From Elsinoe ampelina (lineage: Eukaryota), in contig ML992526.1 of NCBI GenBank assembly GCA_010093995.1, forward strand, positions 1 through 64,000: a DNA stretch of 64,000 nucleotides. Reading direction: 5' to 3'. Position 1 is the stretch's first letter, and every line of letters starts with the position of its first letter. The notes below the pieces were generated by a model, which searched no databases, was not told the DNA's origin, and was given only the letters and a program-made list of their open reading frames with translations. Both the position numbers and the translations under genes were made by a program. Below, in pieces: positions 21,717 to 48,299 of this stretch.

Positions 21717-24700
21717 TCATGCAGAGTTGCGCATGAACCAATCCGTCGAGGGATCAAACTCAAAATTAGTAATGTTGAACTCATTAGGAAGAGCATTGCC
21801 ATCTGCAGCTCCTGCTGCTTGACCAAGATCCATCTGCTCAGTACCAGCCATACCCCCGTTGGCTGGGTCAACGCCAGCTGGTAGCCGTGGTAGGTTGAAG
21901 AAGTCGAAGACGTCAAGGTATTCGAGCTCATTCGGTGCCGGGGTCCGCGCAGGAGTCACCGTGGTAGTACCTCCTGCTGTCCGAATACGATCGAGGGGGA
22001 ATTGGCGTGGCTGACGGCTTATTAGGAAGTCCAGATCGTAGGCAGTGCGCCTCATGTCTGCGAGGATTTTGACAGTGCTGGGAGTTACCCGCTCGCCGTT
22101 GAGATCGCCCCCAGATTGTTCGGATTCGTGATATTCATCGAGAACTCTTGTGAGCAGTACAGCGTAACGCTCAGCTACTTTTTGGTAGGCACCCATCTCT
22201 CGCAGCGTATCGACGAGGGGGTGGATGTTTGGGTTTACCCGGTGATCGATAGTCGAGCCATGCACGAGCAATAGACGGGCAGCCACCCATAGGGAGAATG
22301 CAAAAGGAGGCCCGAGAGTGTTGAGCAGGTTGTTGGATCGCACGAACTTGTTCAGTGCACATATATCCTCTACGGCATTGTGACACCGTTGCGATGCCGA
22401 GTATGAAGGTGTGAAAATTGGCGAGCGTGTGGTAGGATATGCAGCAGATGAGTGAAGGCGGATGATGACACTGGTAGGAAGGTCAGCCAGAGAACTACCA
22501 GAACAGGCTCCCTCGTACGGTCGCTAAGATCTTAGCAGCCCCGATACAAGGTCGGATTCAGTAATTACTACCAGATGGTCGCAACGATATCATTTGAGTG
22601 GTTCTGCACATACGAATACGCTGATATATTGACGCAAAACTACCAGACCGACACGATCAAGGCACAGAGAAAACGGGAGTGACTTACGTGTGGTAGGTAA
22701 TGTGGAGCATAATCCACATGGTGTTGATGGTTTTGTTGGCCCCCGTAGCAAACATGCGTGACATGTTGCCGTACTCGGAGGGCAAGCTGAACTTCCATCG
22801 ATTCAGACTTCCGTCGAGCTCACGGTATTCCCTTTGCCACTGCTCCACATCGGACAGGGCACCTATATCTACCGGTTTCTTCAAGAACCTATGCACTCTC
22901 GAGAGAATACCGAGAACCTCGATATAGTACGAGAAGGTGCCGAGGTTAGCCGCTTTTGGGTCGGTTTGGTCTGGGTATTCTGAAGTCGAAAACCATCTCG
23001 TTTCAACTGGAGCATTGCGGGCGAATTGGTCTTCTCGGCATGGCAATCGGCGATCGATCTCCTTGTCGTCAAGAGCAAATTCGAAAGCTGTTGCAATGGT
23101 CGCATATCGATCGAGGATATAGATCATCCAAAATAGGCGCCGGCGGCTCTCGTCCTCGATGAAATCCCGCGGTTCTGGTAGTACCATAGCTCGCAACGTG
23201 TAAATAGATGGGTAGAGCGGCGATACTGTCATCGAGTTCGGCTCAACAGCTAGGCCTAGTTGAACGACACTCCTGGTGATTAATGCCAGCATATTCCAGC
23301 CAGGGGGACCATTTGAGAAGCCAATGATATCAAGAGCAAGTATAACCAATGCCTGTAAAGCCTTGACTGAGCTGTTGTCGAGTCCGTACAGGAGAACCTT
23401 CTGTTTTGATTTGTTGTAGTATCTCTCTCGAGCTTGCTGCTCCAGTCGTGGGTCCGTCGAGAATTTCAGCGTCGTGGCAACAAGGGCATGAAGCAGAATC
23501 CTGTCCGCTTCATCAAGACTATTCGAGCCAAACAGAGAGTCTAGAGTCGCCCGTCGATGTAATATGGGGCACCACGTATTGATGTGCTTGAAGTATAGGT
23601 CCACGAGTGCATAGAGTAAGTCATACGGCGGTAGGTCAGCGTCTTGTGCCACAGTCATGGCTGTATCTGTAGAGCTGCTTGTGGTACCTGGTATATTGAG
23701 GCTGGCGGATTCAAGGTGCGGATTGGTCGGTTCGAACATGTTTGTGCCGGTCGGTGTGGACTGCATCCGTGCTACCGGAGTCTGTCCCTGTGTGAGGCCT
23801 TGAGGTGGCGGCATGCCATTGCTGTTTCTGTGGGCGCCAAACCCTGGCTGCATCTGGCGCTCGTGAGGACTGTTGTATGATACTGGGGCCCGTTGCATGT
23901 AGTATGAGTCGGTATGACTTCGGGCGTTCGATATGACTGAAGCTGGCGAAGGGGTGTTGTGGGCTGCTTGAGGTTGCATTTGTGGAGGAGCAGTCGGTTG
24001 TTGAACTCCTGGTAGTACATTTGCGAGCTGTTGGAGGAGCTGCTGCTGGGTCTGAAGGACACCTTCAAGCTTGTCTACACGTTGTCAATTGCAAGACCCC
24101 TTGTCCGCAGTCCTATGAGGCTTACCTAGTCGTGTCTCCAGCTCTCGTCCATAGCCAGCTCTGTTTCGTTGTCAGAATTTGGGTCCCATCTCTGGCGAAT
24201 TCATTCGAGCTATCTTTCAAGGACGGAAAGCTTGAGCGCTGTCCTCTGACTATCAGACAAGCTAAGGTGATGACCGAGCCGGCTTGACTGACCAACGTGA
24301 CCATCAGACCAGATCCACGTACTGGCCAATGCAGTATTGAAAAGCTGACCAATGCGACGTTGACTACCAGACACGGATGTATGTACCGATGTAGAGAGTT
24401 TGACTTACCGCAGGCCAGGTTTCTTCCGCTCCTTGTATTCACAATTGTGGCCATTTCTTAGACACCACCCTGCATCTCGGGTCAATTCTTGACGGCGACA
24501 GGCCAAGGATCTACATACCACAGGCAGGTTGACCGCGGTCGCATTTCACCTGTTGCACGTGCTACGTCAGTACAGTCTCGGTGCGGCTTGCAGGATGATA
24601 CAAGCTACTACCGGGTGGACGAGGGCTCACCTTTCTTTGCTTGCAGAGCTCGCATGATACAGAAAGAGGTCGCTTTGCACGCTTCCTCTTGCGCGTATCC

Positions 24701-24837
24701 TCGTCTCCAACGCTATCTTCGCCGCTCCAATCTTCCTCGTCTTCAATTTTCGAAGTATCAACGCCGTGCGAATCGGGAGACGCGTTACCTTGCCCGTGTA
24801 GGTTTGGGGAGGCCTGTTGCTGGTGCTGCTCGGCCAT
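21717..24837 (-). CDS. rhaR: Zn(II)2Cys6 transcription factor with fungal-specific TF domain, probable L-rhamnose regulator, 6 exons
   Basis: Introns 24550-24630, 24470-24518, 24161-24408, 24075-24125 and 22471-22687 rebuild CELCKQRKVKCDRGQPACGWCLRNGHNCEY; middle homology region ESRRRLFWMIYILDRY. Divergent from L-rhamnonate dehydratase, as in the known rhaR-lraC linkage; the gene name rests largely on this synteny. Confidence 0.8.
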
Positions 24838-25198
24838 GACAGCAATGCAATGCGACGAGTTCGGAGAGAGGTACACCGAGGAATCACAGATCAGAAAAAG
24901 TCGGGGAAAGGTTGGGGGCGGAGCGAAAGAGACGTTTTGCGGCTGAAACTTTACAGTACCTTAAAGTTACTTTGGACCCCGCCGCTTCAAGCAATTTCGC
25001 CGCGGACAACCTCGATCTTACTATGCCTCTATCACAATAGAACAGTAGTGGCAACGGAATATCGATCCATTCACGAGTTTGGAATGCATGATGATCCACT
25101 ATTATCACTACCTCAATCTCGGCAATAGATCCTACCAGTAAGTAAACCCCGAGACAAGACAAGGTCAATCAGTTCGCGCTGCCATACCCCGTCGGGCT

Positions 25199-25215
25199 CG
25201 GTGGTCGCTAGCCCG
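25199..25215. promoter_or_regulatory. CGG-N11-CCG Zn2Cys6 site, candidate RhaR-binding element in the divergent promoter
   Basis: Sequence CGG tggtcgctagc CCG, about 220 bp upstream of the lraC ATG; matches the spacing reported for Aspergillus RhaR. Confidence 0.55.
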
Positions 25216-25436
25216 GCTAATTCTGAGGAACCTTGGGCCAGAGGAGCATCTTTCTGAACCCTTCGGAGGGGCACATGTCATCCAAGCTGTTCGGCTACCA
25301 AAGGACGGAAGAATTCCTGCGTAAACATTTCCTCGACCTTATTGCTTCATCTTTCTTTTCTTCTCGCATCTACCTCTCCTTCTCTCGTGTCCTTGCAATC
25401 CCCTTCCACCCCTCGTTCGTCTACCCCGCAATCACA

Positions 25437-26760: not shown

Positions 26761-26923
26761 GCAGTGGATGTAGTGGAAAGCAGGATTGCTGGAATCGCAG
26801 CAGAATAGCGAATCGTTTTAGACTGTATATATCCATGCATAATGCTTGCAATGCTTGCTTCCACAGCCTTCTCTTCCGTCCACACTCATCTTCACTCATG
26901 GGTATCATTGACTTCTCTTCTTC

Positions 26924-29264: not shown

Positions 29265-29415
29265 GGCGTCAGCAACACCGCCGGATCTGGAGCATCGGCC
29301 ACGAATGCTCTTTTGGGAGGCCTCTGGGAGCACCATCACTACTCGGCAAAGTCGTTGTTACCTGCAAAAGTCTATCATTCTCGCTATGAATTCGATGCGA
29401 CTACACCGAAGCAAA

Positions 29416-31717
29416 CTACTCAATCCTATGCGCCCCCGAAACGTCATACACACTCGGCACCGTCGCCACACTCGCCTCCAACACCTTAAAAATCGGCACC
29501 TGCTTGAACACATCGATGATATGGTGCACCGTCGGCAAAGTGTCCCAATCCCTCGCATCCCACTCCACCCTCGCCTCCCTCGCCACCAACTTCTTCGCCT
29601 TTGGCTTCCCCTCCGCATGCCCATTCGCCTCCTCCTTGACCCCATTCGTCTGCCCGTCCTTACTCGGCCCCTGCACGAACGGATCAAACACCGCGTACTC
29701 CGCGTCTGCCTTCCCGGGCTCCCCGACGGCAGGGACGTACTTGTACATCAACATGCCGTCATCGGGCTGCGGTTTGGGGACGAACTCCTCCTCCTTCTCC
29801 TCCAGGCCCTCCCATACCAACGACCCGAACTTGCGTCCGCGCCACCCCATCTCGATCTTGGTGGTGCCGCTCGCGTCCGGGTCTTCGGGCGAGATGTCAA
29901 TATCGCATCCCCACTTCGGCGCGCCTAGCTCTTCCCGCCCCGTCACGATCGGATCGGTGAGCGACTCGAATAGCATCGGGAGGAAGGTGCCTTGCTTGAC
30001 GCTCCCGTCGCGCGAGGTGTATTTGACGCCGTGGATGTACAGCCCGCAGTGGTTGTATCCTGTGCCGCCCAGCCAGACCATGTCGCGGAGGGAGCAGCAT
30101 GTGAAGCTGGCCTGTTGGACAGTAGCGGGGGAGGCGAAGGAGAACTGGTCCGTCGGGAAGAGGGTCTTGAGGAAAGTGGCGGACGTGTTGAAGCGGATGG
30201 TGTGGACTTGTTGCCATTCCATCGAGTGGGAGCGGATGCCTTTGAGGAAGTTCTGGGGTTGGCGGGGGCCCGGGGAGGGGCCGAAGGAGAGCGGTTGGCG
30301 GTAGCGGTAGGGATGTTTGGCGAGGAGGTGCTTCGCGAGGGCGTGTGTGGACGAGTCCCATTCGTCGTGGGAGAAGTTGTAGTCGTTGAATTTGGCCGGG
30401 TTGAAGTCGATGCCGCGCTTCTTTTGCTCGGCGGGGGACATACCGCTGATGCGGGTGAATTCTTGGATGCGGTCGGCGCGGAACTTGCGTTGTTTGACGT
30501 AGAGCTCGAGTCGGTCGTTGATCTCTGAGGGTGAGGTGCCGAGCGGGAGGATAGCGGCGAGGGACACGGCGTCCTCGATGGCTTGGGCGCCCCCTTGAGC
30601 TTGATGGGGCTGGAAGGGGTGCGCGGCGTCCCCGAGCAAGGCAAGACGTCCGTTTATCCAAGTGGGAATGACTTCGAGGTCGAGCAGAGTCCATACCTTG
30701 AGCGAGTCCTCCGGAGCCTTTGCCATCAGAGCTTTGAATTGGTCTGCAAAGATGCCACCGATCTTGAGCATCTGCTCCTTGTCACCCTTCTGGTTCCATG
30801 TAGCGCCCTCGACTCTGGACTCTCCACTTGGGTGGATGAGCAGGAAATTCATCACAGTATTGTTGACGCAAGGATACCACACAAGTCGACGGTCCTCAGC
30901 CAAGGCCATGGTCAGAAAGCCCTCATGTGATACCAGCTCAGCTGTGACCGGATCATTCTGAAGGTCTTTCATGGGGATGAGGAAACGGAAGGCGCTGTGA
31001 CCACAGTCGAATGGCTTGTACTTTGAGCCGTCGACTACCGAATTGCGGCAAAGCGACTACCAGAGTCAGTAGAGGCTCGCTATTGTTTGCGATTATCACT
31101 TACATGAACACCGTCAGCACCAAGCAGAAGGTCTCCTTGGAAGACCTCTCCGTTTTCAGTTGTGACCTTTGCGTTCGCAGCATCCACCTCTGTAACCTTG
31201 CTCGCAAGCTTGAGCTCGCAAGGCTTGCCCTTGCCCTCCGGACTGACTGCCGCTTCCCGAATAGCACTGTGCAAGTGTGCTCTGTGTACGAGGTACCAAG
31301 GCTAGTGATTGATTAATTAAGGTCAGCAGCGGTTCTTCAGCTCAACCTACATGCTGCCATTGCTTGTTCGCCTCCCTCATATCGGCGTGCATGATGTTCT
31401 TTCCGAAGGGCAGGAACATGCGAACTCCGTTCATGAGATTGCCACCGACTTTCTTGACATCCACTCCGAGTCGCGACAAGACGCCTTGTGCATTGGGCGC
31501 CATGTGGATCGCAGCACCGACTTCGTTTGAGAATCTGGAGGTCTCGAGGATTGTGACATTGTGTCCCTGTTGTCGGAGGGCAAGTCCAGCGGTCTTGCGA
31601 GCGTCAGAATCGAAGTGTAGCTGAACAGTGCAGCATGCTTACAAGACCACCGATACCTCCACCAACGATGACCACATTGAGAGGGCCTGAGTCTCCGCCG
31701 ACCCCATTAAGGACCAT
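29416..31717 (-). CDS. FAD-dependent monooxygenase (salicylate-hydroxylase-like) fused to a C-terminal acetoacetate-decarboxylase-like domain, 4 exons
   Basis: VVIVGGGIGGL, LLLGADGVHS and LLGDAAHPFQPHQAQGGAQAIED; C-terminal WLGGTGYNH...LFESLTDPIVTGREELGAPK. Introns 31594-31642, 31302-31350 and 31057-31103. Confidence 0.88.
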
Positions 31718-32256
31718 GATGATAGCTTGCGGGTCTGTGTTGCGACTTGGGAGGTTTGCTTCGGGAACTGCAGGCAAGATGCTCGATCACTTCAATGAAT
31801 GTGGTTCAAAGGTGCACAAAAGACTTGCAAGAAATTAAAGAGCTTCGGCACCGTCCGGCACAAGATCTCTCGACGATACGCATGACGAAGTGCTCGAGAC
31901 TCAGATACCATATGGTAGTAGCTCTGCTGCCGTTGTCAGCACTCTGCAAACCCCGCGCTGCTAGCAATGTGGAGGAACCGGGCCAGACATTGCCTGTAAA
32001 TCCTCATCGACTCTGTCTGGAATCTCACGCCGGCTCCACTCGGGACAACAATGTGGGGAGCTCTCTCAAAAGCTTCGCCGTTTATTGACGAGAGAGCTCT
32101 GAGAAATATCCCCCTTGTCGGTCTCGCGGTGGATGAGAGACCGAGCCGGTGAGCTCCTCCAGCCGGAGCTTGTAGAACATAATGTTGTAAGTCAGATGCG
32201 TCTTTCCTATCTCTCAATTGCACGCTTTGTACTACAGTACCACCACGAAATCAATC

Positions 32257-33583
32257 ATGGCACCCATCACTTCTGACTTCGCCGACCACTTTGGTATCGA
32301 GAACATCCCCTTTGGCATTGCTTCTTCGTCCAAGCACACCTCTCCCCAAGCTGTGACTCGTCTTGAGAACAAGGTCATTTTCCTTGCGGATCTCCCAGAA
32401 GTGGGCAAGGCCGCTGGTGCGGAGGGTGTCTTTACACAGCCTACACTCAACAGCTTCGGTGCTTTGGGGAGGGCGACGCATAAGGCGGTACGAGCTGCCA
32501 TTCAGCAGGCGATCAAAAGCGGATCTACTGAAGCGGCAAGCGAGGACATCAATGATGTGAAGCTTCACTTGCCTGTGTCGACGGGCGACTTCACCGACTT
32601 TTCTTGCTCGCCGCATCACAATCGCAATGCTGGTCAGGCACTGCTTGGCTACTCCAGCGCGCTACCACCAGCCTTTCACAACCAGCCTCTCGGTGAGTTG
32701 GACAGAGAACGCAGTGAGAGGCGCCTATCGCTGACAATTCCACAGGGTACGCTGGTCGATGCTCCAGCATCGTAGTTTCTGGAACTCCAGTCGTGCGCCC
32801 GATGGGTCAGTTCTTCGAGTACGGCAAGGAGGGTTTGAAGGGCGAGCGAAAGAATGTCCGACAAGGTCCTACCAGATGGATGGACTATGAGCTGGAGTTG
32901 GGTGTGTTCATTGGCAAGCCAGTACCATATGGCCAGTACGTCACAGCAGAGCAGGCCAAGGAGAATGTCTTCGGCTTCGTCTTGTTCAATGACTGGAGTG
33001 GTGAGTACGACTCGCAACATAACAGCATGATAGACTGACATTACTAGCTCGTGATATCCAACAATTCGAAATGATTCCTGTTGGACCTCTGCAATCGAAG
33101 CACACGGCGACCACAGTCTCTCCGTGGATCATCACACCCGATGCCGTCGAACCATTCAGGATACCTACGAGGACGCGTGAAATCCCCATCGCACCATACC
33201 TGGTTGACAACAAGGGTGGTGCCCTCGACATCAAAGTACAAGTCGCGGTCGCAGATGGCAAGGGGGGAGACTACAAGGTCACCGGACACGCAAATGCAAA
33301 TGTCATGGATTGGACATTCGAGCAAATCATCGCCCATCAATCGTCAGCAGGATGTGGTCTTCGATCAGGTGATCTACTCGGCATCGGTACCATCTCGGGG
33401 CCTGGCAGCGATCAGCACGGTTGTCTATTGGAAGAGTTTGTGCCTGGTACAACCGCGGCGCGTGGCTATGTGGAGGACAACGAGATTGTGCAACTCCAGG
33501 GGTATGCAGGCCCAGGCGTTGGCTTTGGCGAGTGTGTCGCTCAATTGGTACCGGCGATACACCAAGAAGTGTGGCAAAACTAA
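32257..33583 (+). CDS. Fumarylacetoacetate hydrolase family protein, 3 exons
   Basis: FGIENIPFGI, GDFTDF, MDYELELG, NDWSARDIQ and GDLLGIGTISG; introns 32693-32745 and 33001-33047. Confidence 0.9.
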
Positions 33584-34255
33584 GACCAGGAAAATCCAGA
33601 AGGAGGCATGCTTTATTGCTTTTGCATTAGCGGCAAACGTCTAATCGCTGGTCTTTTTGTCATGTCGCGTCCCAACAAAAACCTTGCCTCCTCTTCAACT
33701 TTGATTGTCGTCGATGTACGCTTGACTCCATCACCTGACCCACTGCAATCACAAAACCGGTGCCGTGAATACATCTCTCCAGTGTGATGCCCAGGTCTGC
33801 CAGTCTTATCCGGATCGTGCCCCATGTGGAGGGAATGTCTCAAGCGAGCAGATTTGATGAAAAAAACGTGGAGGAAGAACGGGGAACCGCTACTGATTCG
33901 TCCTGCCAATGTGGGCAAGTGAAGGCCAAGTCTAGAGGATGTGGGGGCCCCAGCCCAGTACCGGCCGTTGAAAGACGCTTTGAAAGCGGTTTTGCGGGTT
34001 TTCTGGTTGGCCTGGCCTCCTCCCAGCCAAAGGCTCGTGCTGTTTTCGAGCGAGACTTTGCATCTTCCCAGTGCTACTGGACCCATCCCCAGACAGTTCA
34101 AACGCTCCTCGCGTCTCTCTCTCCACACACCCGGGGGTCTGCCCTACCTCTCATCTCCCCTATAACGCTGTCGTGATGTCCTTGATAACATCTCGATCGT
34201 CCTTGGACGTGGTAGTATCATTCTCCTATCCGTCTCTAGAACATCTCCATTCATC

Positions 34256-36014
34256 ATGGTTTCCTTCAAGGAGGCATTTGCCTTGCCAAAGTCAGAGGTC
34301 GACCAGGCCACCCCTCCTGGTACCTCCCAGTTGATCGGTGAGCGGGAAAACCCTGATCTTGCATCTGTCATGCATTACTAACGCGTCGATACAGACAACG
34401 AGCTTGTCAGAACAGAGACTGGTCACCATGAACACACCGAAAAGCACATTCACCTCCAGCCTGAACCATCGGCGGACCCAGCAGATCCCCTCAACTTTGC
34501 ACAATGGCGCAAGTACGCCATCCTGGCCCTCATGTCCGTCTACGCCTTCATCTCAAACACCCAGTCCGCCATCGTCTCTTCCGCCTTCCCAAAGATGGTG
34601 ACAGCCTGGGCTGTCTTCTCTGAGCGTGGTCCCCCCACAGGCATCGTTCCCTTCCCACGTCTCGTCTATCTCATTTCCGTCAACTCCCTCATGCTCGGCG
34701 CATCCAATTTACTCTGGGTTCCCCTTTCCAACACCTTCGGCCGTCGACCCATCATCCTCGTCTGCCTCCTACTCCTCACAGTCTGCTCCATCTGGGCTGC
34801 CGAGGCCAAGTCCTTCAATTCCCTCCTCGCAGCCCGTGTCTTCACCGGCATGGGAGGCGCCGCGGCCGACACCCTCGCTCCAGACGTCGTAGGCCAGATC
34901 TTCTTCGTCCACGAGCGCGGCCGTTCCATGGCCGTCTACACCATCTTCCTCACTGCCGGTTCCCTCGTCGGCGGTGTCGTCGGCGGCTACATCGCCTACG
35001 GCATCGGCTGGCGCTGGACCATGTGGCTTCACGTCATTCTCGCCGGCGCCGTCTTCCTCGGCTGCTTGTTCTTTCTTCCAGAAACCCTCTTCGACCGCGA
35101 ATCCGCCCTCGCCGCCGCCCACGACGAGACCGGCAACGGCTCCGACATTGAGAAGGAAAAGACCGGGACCATCGAACGCATCAACTCCCAAGTCTTCCCT
35201 CCCTACACCTTCTCCCGCTCCATCGGTTTCATGAAGCCCCGCCCCGGCATCTTCGGCCGCTTCATCACCCCCTTCAAAACCCTCCGCTACCCCGGCACCA
35301 TCATGGTCTGCCTGCACTACGCCGGCCTCGTCGGCCTCATCGTCACAATATCCTCCGTGGGTCCACAAATCCTCGTCGCCCCTCCCTACCTCTGGGGCGC
35401 CAACGCCGGTCTCCTCAACATCGGCGGTCTGGTCGGCGCCATCCTCGGCGCCATCTACACCTACTTCACGGCCGACTGGATCACCAAGCGCGCCGCCCGC
35501 AAGGAGCAGCACGGTTACGCCGAGCCGGAGAAGAGGTTGCCGCTCATGATCCCCGCCTTGGTCATCGCGACGGGGGGCTCGCTCGTGTTTGGGTTCGTGG
35601 CCCAGAACCCGTCCCCGAACGGTTGGGTCGGTCTGAACGCCGGTATGGGCATGGTGGCGTTTGGTCTCATGCAGGTGCCGTCCATCGGGTTCAACTATAT
35701 CATCGAGTCGTACGGCCGTTGGGCGAGTGATTGCTGTGAGTATTCCCCCCTACACCGCTCCCCCTTGACACCTATACATGTGCTGACAACGTCGAATAGT
35801 CCTCATGGTCGTCTCCTTCCGCGCCATCATCTCTTTCGCCTGGACTTTCTTCGTCGGCGAGTGGGTCACCGAAGCTGGCGCCGCGGTCCCGTTCGGCGTC
35901 TTCGCTGCGTTGATGGCCGTGTTTGGTCTTACCGTCGTCCCCGTGTGGTTGTTCGGCAAGAGGATGAGGATCGCGACTGCCGATTGGGTCGGGACGGATA
36001 AGAAGTTTTATTAG
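34256..36014 (+). CDS. Major facilitator superfamily transporter (DHA1/HOL1-like), 3 exons
   Basis: PSADPADPLN, PLSNTFGRRP, FFVHERG, LPETLF and EPEKRLP; about 12 hydrophobic segments; introns 34338-34394 and 35736-35799. Confidence 0.92.
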
Positions 36015-36496
36015 TCTTTGTGTGTTTTTCTGCGAGGCGAGCTGGAAGAGCAGAGTGAAGGAGATGTTAAGAAAGGGATGTCGAGGTGTGTAGATATGGT
36101 CATGGGAATGAGATGTTTACGAGTAAAAGTCGTCTCGTGCCTTCGTGGATGTTATTTCGTGAAAAGTCCACAACTTCGGAGCTGTTGAGATTGAGGGTTC
36201 CTTTGTGTACCGTGGTGTACAGAACATCAGTGCTGAGTAGGTAGAACGTGATCATATTGTTGTACTCGTGGTACTGGTCGCTCGTGCACGCGTCAAGTGA
36301 TCGAGCCGTGAGTGTCGCGTGCTTCGTTGATGTTCGCCGGAGTCATTTCTCTTTAACGGATGCGTGATACATAGACTTGAATTCGAAGTATGCATTCGTC
36401 CCAAATGATGTGTATCTACCGTACAACTCCCTTGCAAAGGACAGACCACCATCCCCCCACATCCTCGCCCTCATGCTACGCTCATATCACCATCTC

Positions 36497-38020
36497 TTAC
36501 CTCCACGGTCTCCATCCCCTGCCGGTCTTCAACCAATACCCTGCAACCCCCAAACTAGCCAGCGTAGTCAATATCGCGAATCCGAAATGCGTCACTAAGA
36601 CATGTTAGTCTACTTCCTTGTGGTCCGTTGTTCATGAAAGTAAGGACTCACAGAAAGCCTGTTCGAAAAACCCAAACCCAGCAGCCAACTGCTTGCTCCG
36701 CTTCTTGATCTTCAACTCTTGGGTAGCTTCCAGGTAGAGTTTCTGCACGACCTTGTTCCGCTCTCCAGTCGATGCGGTGAGTTCCGCGCCTTGTAGCTTG
36801 CCTGCTGAAACAAAAGCTGGCCGTGCAGTGCTGAACATATCCGGGATGTAGCGATCTGATGCGTCGGGTGAGGCGGGCCATCCGAGAGGGAAAGCAGGGC
36901 CGACGAGGACCTCGGCGGGGATGGAGTTGAGGAAGGATGCTTGGGCGGGAATGAATTGCGAGAGGTACTTGCCTGATCCTAGATCGGCAAAGTAGGCTGC
37001 TGTGAGGTAAGACTGACCATTCGAGGTCAGGAAGTCAATGGCGTCGTCGAGAGAGCGGATGCTGTGGATCAGAAGAGCGGGTTGGTCGATCTTGCGATTG
37101 AGAAGCTTGTCGGAACGGCGGGGGATGTCGATGACGGCACCTGTGGACTCTTGCACGATGACGCGGCCGTCATTCTTTTCGAGATCGGAGATCAGAGAGC
37201 GTAGCGAGGCATCTGACTGTTTCCGCTTCTCGAGAGCGCCGTTGCCGAGAGGTGTACTGTCGGTGGAGGCGATGCCGGCGCGGACGAGAGCCTGGAGCAG
37301 ATCTTTCTTGACAAACTCGTTCACAAGGACAAGATCGGGGGCGTGAGGAGATCGTCCACGGAAGGAGAAGCGAGCATTGATAAGAGCACGTGCGGCCGCA
37401 TCGAAATCGGCATTTCGGTCGACCAGTGCAACGGAGAGGGTGGAAGTAGGCGAGGCGATGTGGTTTGAAGGTAGCGACTCAGTGTTCGCCGATGTGACTA
37501 TCGTATGTGGTAGATCAAGCTGTGGTGTAGATGTGGTGAAGACAATGCTGTCATGGTCCAGAGCTGGAGGGATGATCGATTTGAGCAAAGCTGGTAGTGA
37601 TCTTGTCGAGTTCTCGAATTGGAGGACCACCACATTGCCTGCTACTATTGCTGCGACCAGAGGGGCGATTGTGCTGAAGAAGAGATTGTGTGATGCTGGT
37701 TTGATGAGGGCGATACCAGTCCCTAGTCTTCTCGAGGCATCATCTTTGCCCTTTGCTACCGTGTACTCTTGGCTTAGTACCTTCTCGTGGTCTGCAATCT
37801 CAGCGTACCGAGTTCGAAGAGTGTTGAGAGCTAACGAGTACTCGATCTTGGCTTCTGCTGGCGTGAAGCCACTGTCACTGACAATCGCATCTTGAATCTG
37901 TTTCGACTTCTCAACTAATGTGTCCCTGAGTTTCTGGAGCTGGGCATGTTTGTAGAAGATGGTCTGAGCCCGGCCATCAATAGCAGCCGCCTTCAGGGCG
38001 GCGAGTTCTTGTTGCGACAT
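36497..38020 (-). CDS. Aldehyde-dehydrogenase-fold protein (ALDH3/HFD1-like) apparently lacking catalytic residues, with C-terminal membrane anchor, 2 exons
   Basis: PLVAAIVAGNVVV, VDRNAD, APDLVLV and SLDDAIDF; intron 36595-36651 adds the hydrophobic tail FGFAILTTLASLGVAGYW followed by basic residues. Confidence 0.82.
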
Positions 38021-38391
38021 CGTGTGTAGTGTGAAGACGTGTGTGAGAAGTAATGACAATAGCTGCAAATGACAGCTCTCTCCCCATGGGTCGACATGTC
38101 GAGAATAAGGTACAATGGCCACCGTTCCGCGTGCCCCAGAGTCGACTAGGCCGTTGCCTCCTCCACTCCCTCCGGGTCGGTCAGGCTTTGAGGGTAAATC
38201 GGGACAAAGTGGGCCGCCCGCTCCTATCCGGCCTTTGGAGAAGAGGAGCCTTTTTTGTGTCTGGATCCGATGTCACGCTGGCAATTAGAGACCTTAGGTC
38301 AGCGGGTGACTTGGAAGATGTTCTGAATCGACTCGCGACTTCATCCTTGAGAATACACAGCAGTGCGACCCCGCCGACACACACCGCAGCC

Positions 38392-38821
38392 ATGTCTGTC
38401 ACAACAACCCAGAACCCAGCGACGTACAACATCGTCCGAACACTCGCGGACTATGATCTCCACCACAGTGAACCGGTCGAGGGCTCAGCCCAAGGTATTG
38501 CACCTCCAAACCAGCATCCGATCCGCCCTTCAGAAGTAGCGCCAGAGAATTGGGAGACCGAGTACAGAAGAGTGCCGCCGCACCAACCCATAAACAGAGA
38601 CTTGGACTTTGAATTCAGGAATATAACCTTGAATGGAGTGGAGACATTTTTCCTGTACAACATGTTTACGGGAATCCAGATGGTGCAGGTGAGTAGTTAC
38701 AACGTGGAAGAGCAAGGACGGAGACTGACAAAGATGGCAGGCACTGAACCGGACCTGGCGGGCGACTGGAGGTAGATTCAACACCAGCTACTTCCGATGG
38801 CAGGTTGGAGGAGAGCATTAG
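38392..38821 (+). CDS. Small hypothetical protein (about 125 aa), 2 exons
   Basis: gccATG start; intron 38689-38740 (GTGAGT..CTGAC..CAG); ends ...YFRWQVGGEH-stop; divergent from the ALDH-like gene. Confidence 0.7.
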
Positions 38822-38950
38822 TCGAGAAGAAGTACATGCATGTCTATAAATATCGTCATCCCTAGGAGTTCTGGGCTCTAAATACACCTTATACCTCTAT
38901 CTATGTTATCCACCGGTACGCCGAGCAGATCGACTCCACCTATATCTCCC

Positions 38951-39490
38951 TCACAGCTGCTTGATCATGATTTCATCGGTCTGTAGGTCTCCGCCAACAT
39001 CAAAAACGTGATCGCCGACCTTCTCATACCCCATCTTACGGTACACAGCTTGAGCTTTGTGGTTCTCCTCCCACACCCCAAGCCACATGTACTTCTGGCC
39101 CTCTGCTCGAGCAATCTTCTCCAGCTCGATTGACAGGGCTTTTCCGACCCCTTGACCATGATAGTCTGTATGCACATAGAATCTGAGCATTTCCACCCTC
39201 TTGTCGTATGATCGGACACAAGGCTCGTCTGACTCTCGAGCCATGAGGATGAATCCTGCTATCCGACCCGACGGGTCCTCAGCCACTAGCATGAGCTTGG
39301 TAGGATCTTGGATTTCCTTGCCGATGAGCTCTGGAGTGTATGTCTCGTCGAGGAATTTGGCCAATTGTTCGGGAGTGACTGAGTGGCCGAAGGTGATGGA
39401 GAAAACATGTCTTCCGACTTCTGACACTTGTGCTGCGTCTTCGACCTTTGCTTTGCGGACGACTATTGGCGATATTGATGAGGTCGTCAT
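38951..39490 (-). CDS. GNAT-family N-acetyltransferase (PaiA-like), 179 aa
   Basis: RFYVHTDYHGQGVGKAL acetyl-CoA motif and WLGVWEENHKAQAVYRKMGY. Confidence 0.9.
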   Translation of the reverse strand: MTTSSISPIVVRKAKVEDAAQVSEVGRHVFSITFGHSVTPEQLAKFLDETYTPELIGKEIQDPTKLMLVAEDPSGRIAGFILMARESDEPCVRSYDKRVEMLRFYVHTDYHGQGVGKALSIELEKIARAEGQKYMWLGVWEENHKAQAVYRKMGYEKVGDHVFDVGGDLQTDEIMIKQL

Positions 39491-40293
39491 GATGGTGATT
39501 GGCGGAAGACTGCTTGATTACAGGTGATTTGCGCGTCTTACTAGTGGACTGGACAGTCTTTTCGTAGCTGAGATATGAAGTAGTTCGTGATCCAGATATT
39601 GAGAACAACAGACTGCAATTGAAATTGAGATGGAATTAAATGTCGTCCCAGACCTTTTACTCTTATCCTTTATTTGACTATCATGGAATCTTCCAATGCC
39701 ATCTACGAGTCACCACCACAAAGACGTGCGACAGGCAACGTGTGACCGCCAAAGGTATACTCTGGAGCGACGGAGACAGAAAATGTCATCTGGCAGGGCG
39801 TCAATGATTACTGTACTCCGCTTCCAGCTTCTCAGGTCTGGAATAAGGTTGAGGCACGCAGGGTTTTGGTCGGAAAACACGCTGATTTGTGTCTCCCCAT
39901 CGGTAGAGTGACTCGTGGTGTGACATTTAAGCCAAACATGCTTCTGGGACTGGCATCTTTCCCGATGCCCACACTAGTCACTATCTCCCATGTCTTCCAA
40001 AAGCCCAGAATAAGTACCTGTTCACCTTTCCCCTTCCTCACCAACTCAATCCCCCGTCCATCATCACAATGTACCTCCCCGCCGCCCACCGAGGAGGGGA
40101 GGAGGATGGCGGAAATGGTGAGGGTGAAGGGGGAGGAGAAGGCGGCGGTGAAGGCGTAGGGATGGATTATAGGGTAATGGCGTTTGATAGGGATGGGCAC
40201 AAGGAATTGCATCGGGATTGGCATGGCTGGGGAACGCTGAACGATGCATTGACCTATCTACAATTTTGACTCCCGGCACACTATACTGGTTGG

Positions 40294-42120
40294 TCATTTC
40301 GATGGGATGATGGGCAATGTGACGTAGTTGACGAATTTGTCGGAGAAATGAATGTGGTTGACACCGCGGAGCTTCTTCTCGGATCTAATACAAGTTAGTA
40401 CATGTTACCGACGTTGGATCGCTCATTGTGCTTACCGATCAACAGGGTCGTTGTGCTGGAAGATTCCACTTCCTTGAGTATCTCCACTGGCGACCTCGAA
40501 GATGATCTTTCCTCCCTTCTCAACCACTACCTGCGTGGGCCACACCTCCACGTCAACAGTGTATACTTCACCAGGTACGACGGGCAGAACATCAGTGCTG
40601 TAGTAGTCTCTCCATGGCAGGTACTCCCTGTGCTTGTAATGCTGGTCGTTCACCTTGCGCAGGGACACCCTCAGCCATCCCTTGGTGAGCGGCACTGGAT
40701 CACCCGCTGTGCCGGTATAATAAATCTCCTTTCCCTCAGGACTGATGTGGCGCAGTGTCAAGAACAGATCGATATCGCTTGGTGTTGGTCCAGATGGATC
40801 CGGTGTGACTGAAACATTGAGACGAGCAACAATGTTGCCTGTGATTTCCGTCTCCTGCTCGAATGCTGGGGTGGTGAATTGGATCAAGCTTGGATTCTCC
40901 ATCGTACCAAGAGCGCGGTAGCCGAGTTTGGCAGTGCCGCTGGGTTGAGAGGTGGTCAGACCCTTATCGGAGGTGAGGTAGTATTTGGTCCATTGCGTGC
41001 GAGCGATGGGCCACTCGTTTTCTGTCCGGCGAGGGTAGGCCTGCTCTGCTTTGGCGTCGTTAAAGCCCACATCACCCTTGCGGAGAACCATGTCGACCTG
41101 AGGCAGCTTGCCCTTTTGTGACCAGCCTTCGCGGTCTTCGCCTTTGAGGAATGCATCGAGGAAGGAACGCTGAATCTCGACTTCTTCCTTGTAGTAGAAT
41201 GGAAGGTCGTGGCGGCCGGTGATGCATCGAAGGTACTTGAGCTCGCTACCAGCGTTGACGAAGCCTTCAATGTTACCTCTGAGATGGAGCAAGATACCAC
41301 CCCAATTGGCCACAGACAGAAGAGGCACTTTGATATCAGCCATGTCGTATTCCTTGCTAGCATAGTACTCCTGATCGCGGAATTGGTTGTTCAAGTTGTC
41401 GATGTTCTGATCATTACGCTGACCTGCTCGCTCTTCCTCGCTGAGGTCACCCTCGAGCGTGTCTGGTCCCCAGTTGCTAGCCTTGCGACCCGGGCGCCCG
41501 TACTGGTTGGTGATGACTTGGCGGTTCCACCAGAAGCGGATGAAAGCGTTACTCAGAATACCGCCGTGTCGGCAGCGGTCACGGTAATAGTCGCTCATTC
41601 CCTCCCAGGGCACGATCGCTGACAGTCCCTTTGGATTACGGGCAGCGACTCGCCATTGAGATCCGGCGTAGTAAGAAATACCGAGGAGACCGACTTTTCC
41701 GCTTGACCATGGCTGCTCTGCGCACCACTCAACCACATCGAAGAAGCACTCTGACGTGCCTCTCGACATGGTGTCAAGGAGACCGGGCGACTGGCCCAGG
41801 CCACGCTCATCGGCCCTGACTACTGCATAACCATGCTTTGTCCAGAAAGCTGGATCTGGGGTCTCCCATGCTGAATGCTCAGACTTGTGCTCTGGATTCA
41901 CCTCGCTGTAGGACTTGGCGTGGAACTCGCTGTAGGGGATATCCTTGCCGTATGGGCCGTAGGTGACCAGAACAGGCACCTTGGTGTCCGTCTTTGGGCG
42001 ATAGACATTGACTCTCACAGGTCCATCGCCTGATTTGAGAGGTACTGCTGTATTCTGCTCGAAAATGTAGGGGAAAGTTGTCTCGTCGACGGTCCGCAAA
42101 TCGCGAACTTGGTTCGGCAT
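40294..42120 (-). CDS. CocE/NonD-family serine hydrolase (peptidase S15 plus PepX C-terminal domain), 2 exons
   Basis: YGPYGK, ADERGLGQSPG, nucleophile motif GISYYA, HLRG, GWLRVS; intron 40385-40435. Confidence 0.92.
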
Positions 42121-42525
42121 GGTGGGGGACTTCCGCGGAGACTGATTGTGAGCAACTTCTCGTCTTGACTACTACTGATGCTATGCTTGCGGTATAATTG
42201 AATGTAGGGGAGAATTAAGGGAGAGAATATCAACTGAAGAGTTCATGCAAGCTAGAATTGGGCTCGGATCTATTTCCCATGACGAATTGTTGCTCCGTGC
42301 TTGGACCGTTGAATGGTGCTGGTGTCTCTGCAGGTCCCTCCACATCCCGGAGTAGCATCAAGGCATGAGGGGGAGGGGCAATCTCCATACCCTCCTCGGC
42401 TCCGTCAGATGGCAGACGGAAGATGCTTGGGCCGACAAGGCCTCTATCCATATTTCTGTGCGATAGGTACCTCTCGGTCCTCTTCGTCCCGACATCTAGC
42501 ACAGCATTGACGTTAATCGACCACA

Positions 42526-43130
42526 ATGGCACACATTGGCAAGCTTCCTACCTTCCAGCGCTATGTGACTGGTCACAACAGCGAGGGCAAAGCCATTGTC
42601 TCCTCTGATGTTGACTCATCCCCACCATGGCAGACCAACATTGAGGGCGGTCGGGCAGCCTTTTGCCAGGCATACATTACGTCCAGTTTCCCAGTCGACT
42701 TCAATGGTGAGAAGGATGTGGAGACTTACAAGGGGTTCTTGAAGGATCCGCCGGGACTAGTCAACAGCAATGGTACTGTTCTTCGTATTGTAGTGAGTAT
42801 GCCTTCCCGTACATGTCACAACCCAGTCCTGACATCTTGTAGGACATGGGTCCTGGTGTCACATCTCCCATGCACCGGACTGTGTCACTTGACTATGGCG
42901 TAGTCCTGGTTGGAGAGGTGGAGCTACAGCTCGACAGCGGCGAGACTCGCTTGATGAAGACGGGAGATATTTGCGTGCAAAGAGGAACAAACCATGCATG
43001 GCGAAATGCCAGCCAGACTGAGTGGGCAAGGATGATGTATGTGCTGCAGCCGTCGAAGCCCATTGAGATCAATGGCAAGCCTCTTGGGGAGGACCTCAGC
43101 ACTATGGAAGGTGTCAAGTCATCTTCGTAG
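42526..43130 (+). CDS. Cupin-2 domain protein, 2 exons
   Basis: RYVTGHN, PMHRTVSLDYGVVLVGE and GDICVQRGTNHAWRN; intron 42793-42842. Confidence 0.9.
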
Positions 43131-43195
43131 ATATGGAACAAATAAAAGTCGTTTCTCTGATTTCAGATTCACTCGCTATATATACAATCAAATAC

Positions 43196-44071
43196 TCATG
43201 CAGACGCCATTCCTACAGGCTTGCCTTGTTCCCAGCAGCCCAGAGTGAACTGGCTGTTGCACATATTCGACAACTCCCATGTCTCTGCTCCAAGATGTCC
43301 TGGCTGACGATCTGATTCATTACCCGCCGCGCCAGCCACAAAACAAGCTGCCATGAAGTGATCGTCTGTGCCGTGTGCGTCTCTGTACAAAGGATGCTTC
43401 ATCAGACGGCAGACAGCGCGTCTGAGTTGAGGTCCAGTTGTGTTGCAAAAGACATCCTCGACACTTTGTCTGAACTCTAGGAGTGGCTTCTCTGGTGGTA
43501 CCACCTGCGCAAAGTTGTCCCTATACTTGATCATGGGATCCCACACGTTTCGGTAAAGGTTGTGTACAGCTCCTCCGGTGCCGATGAGGAGATATCCTTG
43601 TTCTCGGAGTGGTCGAAGAGCGGCTCCTACTCGCATGTGATAATGTGGGTCGTAAGAAGCATTCATCGAGATGATGGTGGTCGGGGGGCACTTTTCGGGG
43701 AACATTCTGATCAAGATTAAAAACGTATCGTGGATCCAGTCAAAGGTCTTGTTGCTTTGTGCGTCAAATCCAGCATCTTTCAACAGGCCAACACAGGTCT
43801 CTGCAGTAGGCAGATCCGGGACTAGCTCGTAGTGTACGTATTTCGAAGGATGTACATATCCGACTGGTGACTTCTTTGGACTTGGGTTTGCTGATACGTC
43901 GATGCGGTTCTGTCCAGGTGCGTCCCAATGTGCTCCCATGATGACCACACCCTTGATACCATTCTTGAGAGCCTCATCGCCACAGCGCTTCCAGTAATCT
44001 GCGGACTCGGATTCCTCGCCCAGCATCATGGTCGAGCCATGGCTGAAGAAGTGCACTGGCGTGGGAGCCAT
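43196..44071 (-). CDS. LigB/DODA-type extradiol aromatic ring-opening dioxygenase
   Basis: FFSHGS, GAHW, GTGGAVHNL and AHGTDDHF histidine motifs; ATG at 44071 in aacATGG context. Confidence 0.9.
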   Translation of the reverse strand: MAPTPVHFFSHGSTMMLGEESESADYWKRCGDEALKNGIKGVVIMGAHWDAPGQNRIDVSANPSPKKSPVGYVHPSKYVHYELVPDLPTAETCVGLLKDAGFDAQSNKTFDWIHDTFLILIRMFPEKCPPTTIISMNASYDPHYHMRVGAALRPLREQGYLLIGTGGAVHNLYRNVWDPMIKYRDNFAQVVPPEKPLLEFRQSVEDVFCNTTGPQLRRAVCRLMKHPLYRDAHGTDDHFMAACFVAGAAGNESDRQPGHLGAETWELSNMCNSQFTLGCWEQGKPVGMASA

Positions 44072-44531
44072 GTTGATGTCGGGTATGTCGAATGATGCTG
44101 CTGCGGTATTACAGCTAAGGATACACTGGTCAGTACACAGAATGTCAACTGTCAAAGAAAAGGAGCTTTGACAAAGCTGCGACAATATCTTTACCAGCCG
44201 TGATCCTTGCCCAGCCGCACGAGACCTACTTTTCGGGACCCAGGTGGAGAGAGGAGATGTGGTCGCGTCGGAAGGCCGAGGAGCAACTCGTTTTTCCGAA
44301 ATCAAACAAGGTTTCAACGGCTGAGGGGAAGCTTGGTCGACGATGCAGGGTCTCGCCCCATCTGGCTAGGCAATTTACAGGCAATCTAGATCTCGAGTGG
44401 TCCGTGTCTTTGCCAGTCTTTTCACCCCATTTTCTGCTGACCCGAGGCCTTTCTGCCCACTTCATTCCGTCCGTCCTCCACCTCTCGCTCGCCCACTTGC
44501 CCTTCAGCACTGGGAAGGCGAGCGTATACCG

Positions 44532-47500
44532 ATGAGCACCACCACGGAGCAGTATCAGCAACGTCCGTCGGTATCATCTGCATCTGCACTACCCCAGACT
44601 TCTCCGCAATCCGTTCTGGGGAAGCACCCTCGAGATGAGGATGCGACCAAGACGCCGAATGCGAATGGTGACTCGGCAAAGGACACACCAACCAAGCTCT
44701 TCCGTTGTGGTGACTGCGACAAGAGCTATTCTCGAGTCGACCACCTTGCCCGGCATGTGAGAATACACACACAAGTAGGTCCATCTTGTAAACCCTAACT
44801 GTTAGGGCATTATGTTAAACAAGCTAGGAACGCCCTTACGTCTGCGACACATGTGGCAAAGGGTTTGCTAGAGCGTTAGTCATAATCCCCCCCTCCCATG
44901 ATCTTTATTGCTACCAGAGACGCGATCGATCCTACCAGAACGTAATCAGTCCTACCAGGACGTGGTCATCAACAATGCTCACTGCCGATTGGCCCCCTGG
45001 TGGTTTCTCATCATCGACCACAAGTCAAGCCTTGGTGTCTAACATACTACCAGAGACTTACTTAAACGACATGCTGCCGGCCACAATGCACCAGCAAATG
45101 ACAAGACAGGCAAGGGAGGCTCAGCTTCATCCCGCCAGTCCAGGGTGAACCAAGCTTGCGAGGCTTGCGCCGAGCTTCACCTAAAATGTGACAATGTGAA
45201 GCCCTGCTCTCGATGCTGCACCAAAGGCATCTCGTGTAAATATCAAAACAACACTTCGGAGACAGAGGCTGTCGCACAGAACCTGCTCAGTCTGGCTCAA
45301 ACACCTGTGATAGACCACTCAAGCCTTCCAACTCCTGTCAGCTACCAACCAGATGCAAATCATAATCAAACTCCAGGAACTCATCACATGGATCTGAGCA
45401 TCACGCAAACGCCTAGCGCGGGTCCAATGCTATATCAAACGCAGGGAAACACGCCAGGACGAACACCAATGCTGATGCAGTATGATATGCCTGCACCCCA
45501 GCATCCGTACAACCACACGACAAATCATAATTTGCAGCAGCACGAGCATAATAACTACCAGGGTCAGAATACTACCAGCATGAATGACAATCAGCAATCC
45601 TATGGGCAGGACCCTCAGCCGTATGCACAGGACACTGATCAGCCATACTCGCATGACAACTCCGTGCCCCCAGAAATGGATCGCAATGAGCTGCATGACT
45701 TTCTGCGCGGCGTGATGGGCATACCAGCTACAGATCCTATGGCTGCACCAACTTCCGGCTACAAATCCGGTCTTTGGACGCCCCGTAACATGTACGACTT
45801 TGGTGTCGATACAAGCTTGGAGCTGAACGACATGGATCTAAGCTTCTTGGATACCTACAATCAGTACAATCCATTCGGCGCCACTCCGGATGCTGCAAAC
45901 TCGGCCATCGGATCGACTGTGAGCGAGACGCCTTCCGAGCCACCACTTGGGGTCGAGTCGTTGCAGAAAGCGTCGACGTGGCGATTTCGTCCCATACCAA
46001 AAGACACTGCCCCAAACAATCTGCTCGTCCCAGCTACAGATCCTGTCACTTCGAGAAGACTTCTCGTAGAACGTAGGGTCACACCAGAAACCTTGCCCTA
46101 CACAATACGAGATCAGATACTTGCCATGATCATTACCGCTGGCGCCGATAGCAAGTCTGTGCTTTCCTTTCCTTCGGTCGAACTATTGGACAGTTTACTT
46201 CAATTCTTCCTCTCCGGCGGACCATCTTCGACCGATCTCATTCACATTGCCACCTTTCGACCGTCACAGAAACGCCCAGAGCTATGCGCAGCCATGATAG
46301 CTGCGGGCGCCGCCAACGCCCCCGACACTGCCCTTCGCAAGCTTGGTATGGTTATTCAAGAGACTGTTCGAATAGCCGTGCCGAAGAAGCTGGAGACTGA
46401 CAATAGCTTGATACGGGATATTCAAATGATCCAAGCCGCCTTCCTCTCACTGAAGATCGGTTTCTGGTCCGGCAACAGCAGAAAGATGGAGATGAGTGAG
46501 AGCTTCATGCAGCCGTGGACAACTATGGTTCGGAGAGCTGTATGTATCCATTAGTCACATCACTCGACACTACTGACGCATATCAGGGATGGTTTGGTCG
46601 TAAGTATGATCAAATTGTGCCGTCGGCAGAAGATTCGGGAGAGGGACTGGAGGAGAAATGGAACAAGTGGATCTACGAGGAGAGCCGCAAAAGGTATGAC
46701 ATTTCACAAGATCCCATTTCGATATTGTCAGTCACTAGGGGGATGGCAAAATCTGGTAGTACTATACACCAGAAATCCTACCAGGGCTGGCATCCCACTG
46801 GAGATGCTCGCCGAGTCAAGCTGGAAATTGCCGGCTCTGGTAGGACTTTTGACCGCTCACGTTTGACCGACAAGATCAAAATTACATGATTCCAAAAGCT
46901 GGATGTCAATTCTAATGATTCGTCCAGGCTCTGCTATCACTTATTCGTCCATGATACCGTGGCGTCGATGTCGCTGTTTATCAATCCGATCATCTCCTTC
47001 GCCGAGATGGCTCTCCCACTGCCACAACCAGCAGTACTCTGGATGGCAAAGAGCGCGCAGGCATGGAAGAACGCTTATCTTGCGTTGCGAGATCCTCACG
47101 CCCAATCTCCCTCGACACTTGATCTCCTCAACAACATTGATCTTTACTGTACTCCGCATTCTCAAACGCCGTATGACCGCGCGACCGCCACGTATGCTAT
47201 TCTTGCCGCGACTTGGCGTCTTGTCTGGGATTACCGCCAGAACTGTGCTATTACAAAATCGATACCCAACCAGTGGAACAATGGAACGCTTCTACTTTCG
47301 TCTCGACTTGAGGAGTTGAAAAGATTGCTCGAGTGTTTGCGCATTGGCGCGGCTCAACCTGGCTCAGCACAAGCCGCTTCTTCTCATCCACAACATCCCT
47401 ACCAGCTTGCGCCCGTCAAAGTGCTATCCACAAGCGAATCGGATTTATCGTCACTTCTCTTCTTAGACGCTTTATCACTGCACTTGCATGCGCCGATGGA

Positions 47501-48299
47501 AGATATCCACATATTCGCTGGGGTAGAAGGCCACGAGGAAGCCAAACGCGTGTACCCTTCCCTACGTTCGTGGGCTGGCACGTCCGGTGCCCGACAGTCT
47601 GTTTGGCATGCCGCACAGCTCTTCCGATACGCTCGAGGCATCGAAGCCATCAATTCATTCGACGCCGTGGTAGTATATCAAGCCTCCCTGGTAGTTTGGT
47701 CCTGGGGCGTAATCAGCAACGCTGTGTCGACCCCAGCACCAGGCCAAACACCTGGCGGTCAAGGTCATGCTTATAGTTCGAGCTCAGGCGGCTTCAACGG
47801 TTCCGTGTCGACTCCGTACGGGGGAACACTGCCAGCGGGTGCTCCCGACGGCTATTCTGGTAGTACCTCGACCAGCTATCCCTGGCAAAAAGAAGACGTC
47901 GTCATACTCGATGACCTCAACTCCGAAGCCGCTGGTAAGCGTTTTGTGGCCATGAACCGCGGCCGACCAGCTATTGCCACCCCACTCGGCGGCAACCCGA
48001 GCAACGCAAGTGGCGTCAAGAGACGTCCCGACGGACGAGAGAGCCAGAGTCCTGTCGATACTCGAAGCCAGGGTCAGGGTCAGGGTCAGAGAAGGTCAAG
48101 CAACGCAACCGTCACTTGGAGTGATGCCACTGAGCAAGGTCAAGGCTACGCACTGCTGAACGATCCAGCTGCAGTCATGGGCTGTGTGATGGATCTCATT
48201 GCTGGTAGTCATAAGACGAAGAATGGGAGGCCACCACTGGTGGAGAACTTGTTGGAGCTAATGGGTGGGCTGAAAGCGGCAGTGAGTGTTACGGGATGA
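44532..48299 (+). CDS. Transcription factor with two C2H2 fingers, a Zn(II)2Cys6 cluster and a fungal-specific TF domain, 5 exons
   Basis: CGDC..RVDHLARHVRIH, linker TQERPY, CDTC..RADLLKRHAAGH and CEACAELHLKCDNVKPCSRCCTKGISC; introns 44775-44827, 44875-45053, 46540-46586 and 46694-46927. Confidence 0.9.

Follow-up and report, generated by a model that had tools for sequence, protein, structure and literature searches.

Clustering of the heptamer CTACCAG/CTGGTAG in two regulator genes of Elsinoe ampelina: a candidate lineage-specific gene-body element

Why should a single seven-letter word recur throughout two transcription-factor genes of a fungus, in introns and coding sequence alike? The question is raised by a 64-kb stretch of Elsinoe ampelina DNA (assembly GCA_010093995.1, contig ML992526.1, positions 1 to 64,000; hereafter the window), in which CTACCAG, or CTGGTAG on the opposite strand, is concentrated in a rhaR-type Zn2Cys6 regulator gene and, unlinked and 20 kb away, in a gene for a combined C2H2 and Zn2Cys6 regulator (gene 2). 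An earlier note on this DNA proposed that the word is an undescribed gene-body element marking regulator genes, acting either as a DNA-binding-protein site or as a pairing code that controls splicing. Here we establish the clustering of the word, its exactness, its excess at synonymous sites, its independence of orientation and its restriction to one lineage. The evidence supports a real nucleotide-level element, explained neither by composition nor by protein sequence.

An exact word concentrated in two regulator genes

A pattern search of both strands recovered 31 copies of the word in the window, whereas 100 dinucleotide-preserving shuffles averaged 5.34 copies and never exceeded 11. The 22 positions that the earlier note had listed, nine in or beside rhaR and 13 in gene 2, are all exact matches; its figure of about eight copies elsewhere was close, nine being counted. 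The two regulator gene bodies make up 6884 nt, or 10.8% of the window, yet carry 21 of the 31 copies (eight in rhaR and 13 in gene 2; binomial 7e-14), a density of 2.6 and 3.5 per kb respectively, and the rhaR cluster has two further copies beyond the bounds of the coding gene, at 21175 and 25132. As a look-elsewhere correction, the 5172 canonical heptamers with at least six copies were ranked by their largest count per 3.5 kb. CTACCAG came first for local clustering, with 13 of its 31 copies within 3.5 kb (P 3e-9), and the runner-up was two orders of magnitude weaker (P 4e-7).

Among the 21 one-mismatch variants of CTACCAG, nominal enrichment was confined to CTACCGG (3/3) and CTACCAC (5/17), and it is therefore the exact word that matters. 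The flanks are informative at positions -2, -1, +1 and +2, extending the site to about 10 bp, roughly TCTGGTAG[T/G]A; the preferred context around TGGTAG is T/C, C on the 5′ side and T/G, A on the 3′ side. The two genes also have a 13-mer in common, TTCTGGTAGTACC, found in rhaR at 23172-23184 and in gene 2 at copy 47857. Both orientations are used, as the earlier note had said, with 12 of the gene-body copies reading CTACCAG in the sense strand and nine CTGGTAG, and this balance favours a reader of the double strand. The copies of gene 2 (44911-48202) have a convergent-looking layout, the six leftmost all being on the + strand, the three rightmost all on the - strand and those between mixed; three of the left copies are tandem duplicates.

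Nine copies lie in coding sequence, again in agreement with the earlier note; they occupy three frames and both strands. When codons were shuffled synonymously 3000 times, preserving the protein and each gene's own codon usage, rhaR gave a mean of 0.52 copies against three observed (P 0.009) and gene 2 a mean of 0.80 against six observed, a number reached in none of the 3000 shuffles. For the two genes combined the mean was 1.32 and the maximum five, so that 0 of 3000 combined shuffles reached the observed nine. Defining a synonymous opportunity as a tripeptide for which some synonymous choice could spell the word, we found that 9 of 28 opportunities are realised in the two regulators, compared with 3 of 62 in 12 other open reading frames (ORFs; Fisher 0.001). 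The three Leu-Pro-G sites in rhaR are each spelled CTA CCA G; at two of them the residues are conserved across Pezizomycotina, and some of the nine coding copies fall in conserved residues without indels. The claim of an element at the nucleotide level is upheld both by this excess and by the strong enrichment of the exact word alone. Stalling at the codon pair CUA-CCA was considered and dropped because the gene 2 copies lie in other frames: copy 45555, for example, reads TAC CAG and copy 45572 reads ACT ACC AGC.

Chance, or base and codon composition, is rejected as the source of this pattern. Both genes do have a low GC content at third codon positions (GC3, 0.54-0.55) and use CTA, GTA and CCA more than their neighbours. 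However, codon usage is already accounted for by the gene-specific codon shuffles, the total of 31 lies beyond every dinucleotide shuffle, and the word heads the clustering ranking of all 5172 heptamers. Furthermore, in 34 near-full-length rhaR orthologues of other fungi the count of the top heptamer was 4-5 in 29 and at most 8 (in a 66%-GC contig), as against 8 and 13 here.

A marking of regulator genes as such would be a generalisation from two of two transcription-factor genes within one 64-kb window. A Pfam scan of 51 long ORFs of the window found no further transcription-factor domain. Full-text literature searches, which did not cover supplementary files, returned no description of the word or of the phenomenon, and the heptamers searched as whole words matched only unrelated papers; the word is thus, as the earlier note held, undescribed in the texts searched.

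Long introns and splice sites

The two genes have four long introns, of 179, 217, 234 and 248 nt, compared with 47-81 nt for their other five, and all four contain the word, as had been claimed. These introns are real because two of them (179 and 234 nt) are spliced out of a contig of run X3 and the other two (217 and 248 nt) belong to a rhaR model whose translation matches the deposited Elsinoe ampelina protein P0011 at every residue. Run X3, which carries the same organism code, is presumed to be RNA; its contig, of 3357 nt, is spliced and skips exactly the four GT..AG introns of gene 2. The gene 2 product is identical to E. batatas protein P0001 in 1056 of 1086 aligned columns.

The copies are arranged differently in each long intron (Table 1). 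Intron i3 of rhaR has one exact copy (24364..24370, + strand), held by one of three 15-nt repeats, TGAC[T/C]A[T/C]CAGAC, at 24247, 24298 and 24361. Intron i5 has three + strand copies, at 22495, 22568 and 22640 (22495..22646), which read CTGGTAG in the transcript and lie 72-73 nt apart, and its 3′ splice site, taken from the model equal to P0011, is itself CTACCAG (22471). The segments between the words of i5 show no similarity to one another and no residual tandem unit. A 16-nt direct repeat, CGTGTGGTAGG[A/T][T/A]ATG (14/16 identical), brackets i5 with an offset (22426-22441 and 22687-22702); its frame differs between the two exons, it contains the variant CTACCAC, and it may be due to chance.

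Intron A of gene 2 has four sense copies of CTACCAG, three of them in a tandem array of 2.6 units of 20 nt (44911-44963) with the word at the start of each unit, and the fourth forming the 3′ splice site (45047). The 11-mer CTACCAGAGAC at 44911 recurs at this splice junction. Intron B holds direct as well as inverted repeats, the latter comprising 23-nt arms at 46770-46792 and 46829-46851 that are 83% complementary and include two of its copies. Its predicted hairpin pairs CCUACCAGGGCUGGCA with UGCCGGCUCUGGUAGG, and none of 200 shuffles folded as stably (z -4.11). Introns i5, i3 and A fold no better than shuffles (z 0.02, 0.39 and -0.81), so that the pairing code of the earlier note fits intron B and none of the other three. 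A shared intron family was rejected, since pairwise local alignments of the four long introns were no better than shuffles beyond the word itself. The four introns gave no Rfam match, small nucleolar RNAs (snoRNAs) included, at E up to 5, and no tRNA was found; repeat-induced point mutation, snoRNA boxes, a tRNA A-box and U12 signals, judged by eye, do not fit.

The presence of the word at splice junctions suggests another reading, namely that it is an RNA-level element whose copies act as decoy or auxiliary splice signals, slowing or tuning the removal of the long introns and thereby affecting regulator output; the copies might be read by a re-targeted U1-like small nuclear RNA (snRNA) or pair with one another. 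One orientation is acceptor-like (UACUACCAG^, where ^ marks the splice point) and the other donor-like (CUG^GUAG(U/G)A), and both end in YAG. Two of the four long introns end in CTACCAG (45047 by the spliced contig, 22471 by the model), and an intron outside the clusters ends in CTGGTAG; the latter was placed from the reading frame, its removal giving a continuous ...GDLLLGADGVHSLCRNS... product. Copy 25132 overlaps GTAAGT, the 11-mer of the intron A junction recurs inside that intron, and intron B has its hairpin. In rhaR, moreover, all four transcript-sense copies of CTGGTAG are intronic, while every transcript-sense CTACCAG is exonic or at a 3′ splice site. Against this, splice signals are degenerate, whereas only the exact word is strongly enriched, and an RNA signal should be biased to the sense strand, whereas the copies are balanced at 12 to 9. 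Of the four long introns only B folds better than shuffles, the +5 G is missing from most of the donor-like copies, and the single spliced contig contains the canonical isoform only, although contigs drop rare variants. We regard the splicing explanation as the main alternative, albeit an unlikely one.

Table 1. Positions in the window of the two regulator genes, their long introns and individual copies of the word.
Feature	Position	Strand	Details
rhaR-type Zn2Cys6 regulator gene, 824 aa	21717..24837	-	Introns 81, 49, 248, 51, 217 nt; Pfam Fungal_trans
C2H2 + Zn2Cys6 regulator gene (gene 2), 1084 aa	44532..48299	+	Introns 53, 179, 47, 234 nt
rhaR long intron i3, 248 nt	24161..24408	-	Gene model; fold z 0.39
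rhaR long intron i5, 217 nt	22471..22687	-	Gene model; fold z 0.02
Gene 2 long intron A, 179 nt	44875..45053	+	Spliced X3 contig; fold z -0.81
Gene 2 long intron B, 234 nt	46694..46927	+	Spliced X3 contig; three copies
47-nt intron, flavin-monooxygenase-like gene outside clusters	31057..31103	-	3′ splice site CTGGTAG
Copy, rhaR/MR_MLE intergenic region	25132..25138	+	Overlaps donor-like GTAAGT; exact match
Coding copy, rhaR: CTA CCA G, Leu-Pro-(Ala)	21878..21884	-	Word in 1/51 other orthologue sequences
Coding copy, rhaR: GTA CTA CCA GAA, conserved M-V-L-P-E	23175..23181	-	Word in 1/34 other orthologues
Coding copy, rhaR: GTA CTA CCA GGA, V-L-P-G	24009..24015	-	
Two coding copies, gene 2, 17 nt apart	45555..45578	+	Variable Q/N-rich stretch
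Coding copy, gene 2: TAC CAG, Y-Q	47399..47405	+	
Coding copy, gene 2, antisense: CTG GTA G, L-V-V, conserved region	47688..47694	-	
Coding copy, gene 2, antisense: TCT GGT AGT	47857..47863	-	Within 13-mer TTCTGGTAGTACC
Coding copy, gene 2, antisense: GCT GGT AGT, conserved region	48202..48208	-	

The rhaR gene adjoins an MR_MLE dehydratase gene, as in rhamnose clusters, and this neighbourhood matches the rhaR/lraC arrangement of A. nidulans as described in PMC4245848. Two adjacent ORF pieces just downstream of rhaR (20094-21354, - strand) match Fic/DOC and represent either one split gene or two tandem genes. Gene 2, in which Pfam identifies zf-C2H2 (two fingers) and Zn_clus domains, stands at the edge of a catabolic-looking cluster (29400-44400) that it may regulate, with genes for an FAD monooxygenase/ADC-like protein, a fumarylacetoacetase, an MFS transporter, an aldehyde dehydrogenase, a GNAT protein, an S15 peptidase and a LigB-type dioxygenase. 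A 5S rRNA gene, cut by the start of the window (1-93, - strand; Rfam 55.4 bits), is a dispersed copy beside ordinary genes.

Other fungi and the growth of introns

With an alignment of RhaR relatives we collected 71 orthologue loci, 48-73% identical, from metagenome contigs; since several are near-duplicates of each other, their counts are partly dependent. The word has a density of 0.104 per kb inside these genes and 0.086 per kb in the flanking DNA, which is background, and no other heptamer was clustered in the rhaR orthologue loci examined. The word is therefore not a property of rhaR as such. A survey of 422,202 nt from contigs of other fungi showed heptamers with at least nine copies per 3.5 kb in L012, L026, L032 and L064/65/67; the pile-ups of L012 and L032, the two inspected, are largely tandem microsatellite arrays. 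Penta- and hexanucleotide microsatellites flank the rhaR orthologues there (L012, 3042-3078; L032, 7727-7939).

The long introns of rhaR have short counterparts or none in other fungi. Of the 45 orthologue loci measurable at the position of i5, 19 lack an intron and 26 carry one of 47-120 nt. The position of i3, between GLR and AGY, is without an intron in 31 of 32 measurable loci, and the exception, L001, has one of 49 nt; from these sequences, the intron at this place would be either a rare old intron or a gain.

For gene 2 a close relative is available in run X12, with about 9-11% exon divergence and two last-exon indels that match the E. batatas protein; letter-level differences from relatives were covered up to 45297. 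X12 has 48 letters in place of 228 nt of intron B, about 180 nt having been inserted or deleted recently, the 23-nt-armed hairpin among them. In mid intron A, 69 unlike letters replace 67. Three copies of intron A allow a comparison; those at 44932 and 45047 are the same in X12, and that at 44911 differs by one change. Both the clusters of the word and the long introns thus appear, from the sequences compared, to be specific to the Elsinoe lineage.

These length differences raise the prospect that the word is a by-product of intron growth, a word-bearing unit having spread by local duplication, tandem or inverted, or as a small inserted hairpin resembling a miniature inverted-repeat transposable element (MITE) or an introner, within two weakly constrained genes, with the exonic copies being unrelated coincidences or short-patch conversions. 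The 20-nt tandem array of intron A, the three 15-nt repeats of i3 and the direct and inverted repeats of intron B all fit such a history, as do the much shorter intron B of X12 and the short or absent introns at the i5 and i3 places in other fungi. The rhaR introns of A. nidulans, given as 154, 50, 51 and 52 nt in PMC4245848, agree with it too. However, the segments between the words of i5 have no residual similarity, nothing is common to the four introns beyond the word, and one-mismatch copies of the kind expected from decay are not enriched. Nor does growth explain why nine coding copies, partly in conserved indel-free residues, exceed the synonymous shuffles, or why a single exact word should prevail in two genes that are unlinked and lie 20 kb from each other. 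Intron expansion accounts for the intronic arrays and the relative's short intron, but it leaves unexplained why coding copies are in excess and decayed ones lacking. As an account of the whole pattern we consider it improbable, though it deserves to be kept in mind.

Possible readers of the word and known systems

Four features, namely the exactness of the word, the extent of the site to about 10 bp, the surplus of copies at silent positions and their occurrence in introns that have lengthened around them, together point to selection acting, within the Elsinoe lineage, on the sequence itself, as DNA or as RNA. The DNA-binding-site proposal of the earlier note appears to remain the best fit, and we tentatively favour a selected array of sites for a putative sequence-specific DNA-binding protein acting on double-stranded DNA. 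We infer both that the reader is such a protein and what its binding does. On this explanation CTACCAG/CTGGTAG would be the core of a lineage-specific cis-element of about 10 bp, TCTGGTAG[T/G]A, recognised in double-stranded DNA. Each pathway-specific Zn2Cys6 regulator gene would carry an array of 8-13 such sites along some 3-4 kb, placed where sequence can change, that is, at synonymous codon positions and in introns that have lengthened around the sites. Such arrays would probably affect transcription of the two low-expressed regulator genes, through intragenic sites that may resemble enhancers or silencers or act as roadblocks. An extent of about 10 bp is typical of a protein site and, together with the lack of orientation dependence, fits a cluster of binding sites.

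Several observations weigh against the protein-site reading and are best considered together. Placement within gene bodies is unusual for transcription-factor sites, and the literature searches gave no binding factor for CTACCAG/CTGGTAG. At three places the word doubles as a real or inferred 3′ splice site (45047, 22471 and that of intron 31057..31103), which points to RNA. The T at +1 in 8 of 9 transcript-CTGGTAG copies, compared with 5 of 12 others, is a weak hint of a strand-specific constraint. The spacing of same-strand neighbours leans to multiples of about 10.5 bp (R 0.78, P 0.035; period 10-11, n=7, post hoc), but this helical-phase signal is lost once all periods of 5-30 are allowed (P 0.38). 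With a divergence of about 9-11%, the comparison of three copies with one relative tells nothing about conservation, and the intergenic regions are so compact that one can hardly see whether the sites stop where transcripts do.

The two C2H2 fingers of gene 2, by the zinc-finger recognition code, would presumably favour a G-rich CreA-like site and not this word. Autoregulation by RhaR was rejected, as the motif predicted for A. niger RhaR, TG[CAG][GTA]GGG (PMC5617896), is unrelated to CTACCAG/CTGGTAG. A bolder formulation, which we put forward as doubtful, is a private Elsinoe gene-body code, in which an exact decamer has been selected into the silent codons and expanded introns of pathway-specific regulators, a class under common control, and is read by a putative dedicated DNA-binding protein or by a re-targeted U1-like snRNA.

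If the word is functional, it would rank among the few clear examples in fungi of a non-coding signal selected at synonymous sites. It would, moreover, tie the lengthening of introns to the gain of regulatory sites, and would represent an undescribed layer of control over the regulators of catabolic clusters, here those for rhamnose use and for an aromatic-ring-cleavage cluster.

Known systems resemble the pattern in part. Introner-like elements (ILEs) of Dothideomycetes are longer than regular introns (PMC3609843). Like them, the four long introns exceed regular spliceosomal introns in length and are lineage-specific in length or presence, and intron B has a stable predicted structure. Unlike ILEs, the four are similar only in the word, three of the four are unstructured and the word is enriched in exons too; many near-identical intron copies, as expected of ILEs, were not found within the window. 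By these within-window tests the four long introns are not an ILE family. Intron B does have terminal inverted repeats of the kind that define MITEs, in its 23-nt arms; no clear flanking duplication was seen, and there is no other copy in the window.

In long yeast introns, hairpins shorten the distance from the 5′ splice site to the branch point. Families of internally symmetrical introns are described for Hypoxylaceae in PMC8469720. The 23-nt-armed hairpin of intron B, with its two copies of the word, is reminiscent of both, but only one of the four introns has such a structure and the exonic copies would be left unaccounted for. Closer in layout are the determinants of selective removal (DSRs) bound by Mmi1 in fission yeast, which reportedly consist of hexamers clustered through the bodies and introns of meiotic genes, are dosage-sensitive and act in RNA, in the sense orientation only. 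As with these DSRs, the word is repeated through the bodies and introns of specific regulated genes; unlike them, it is equally frequent in both orientations.

The word behaves most like the homotypic clusters of transcription-factor sites. Those clusters lie upstream, in promoters or enhancers, whereas the copies described here lie in gene bodies, including synonymous positions and introns. The two have in common a short exact word of about 10 bp, many copies within a few kilobases, use of both orientations and a weak helical lean.

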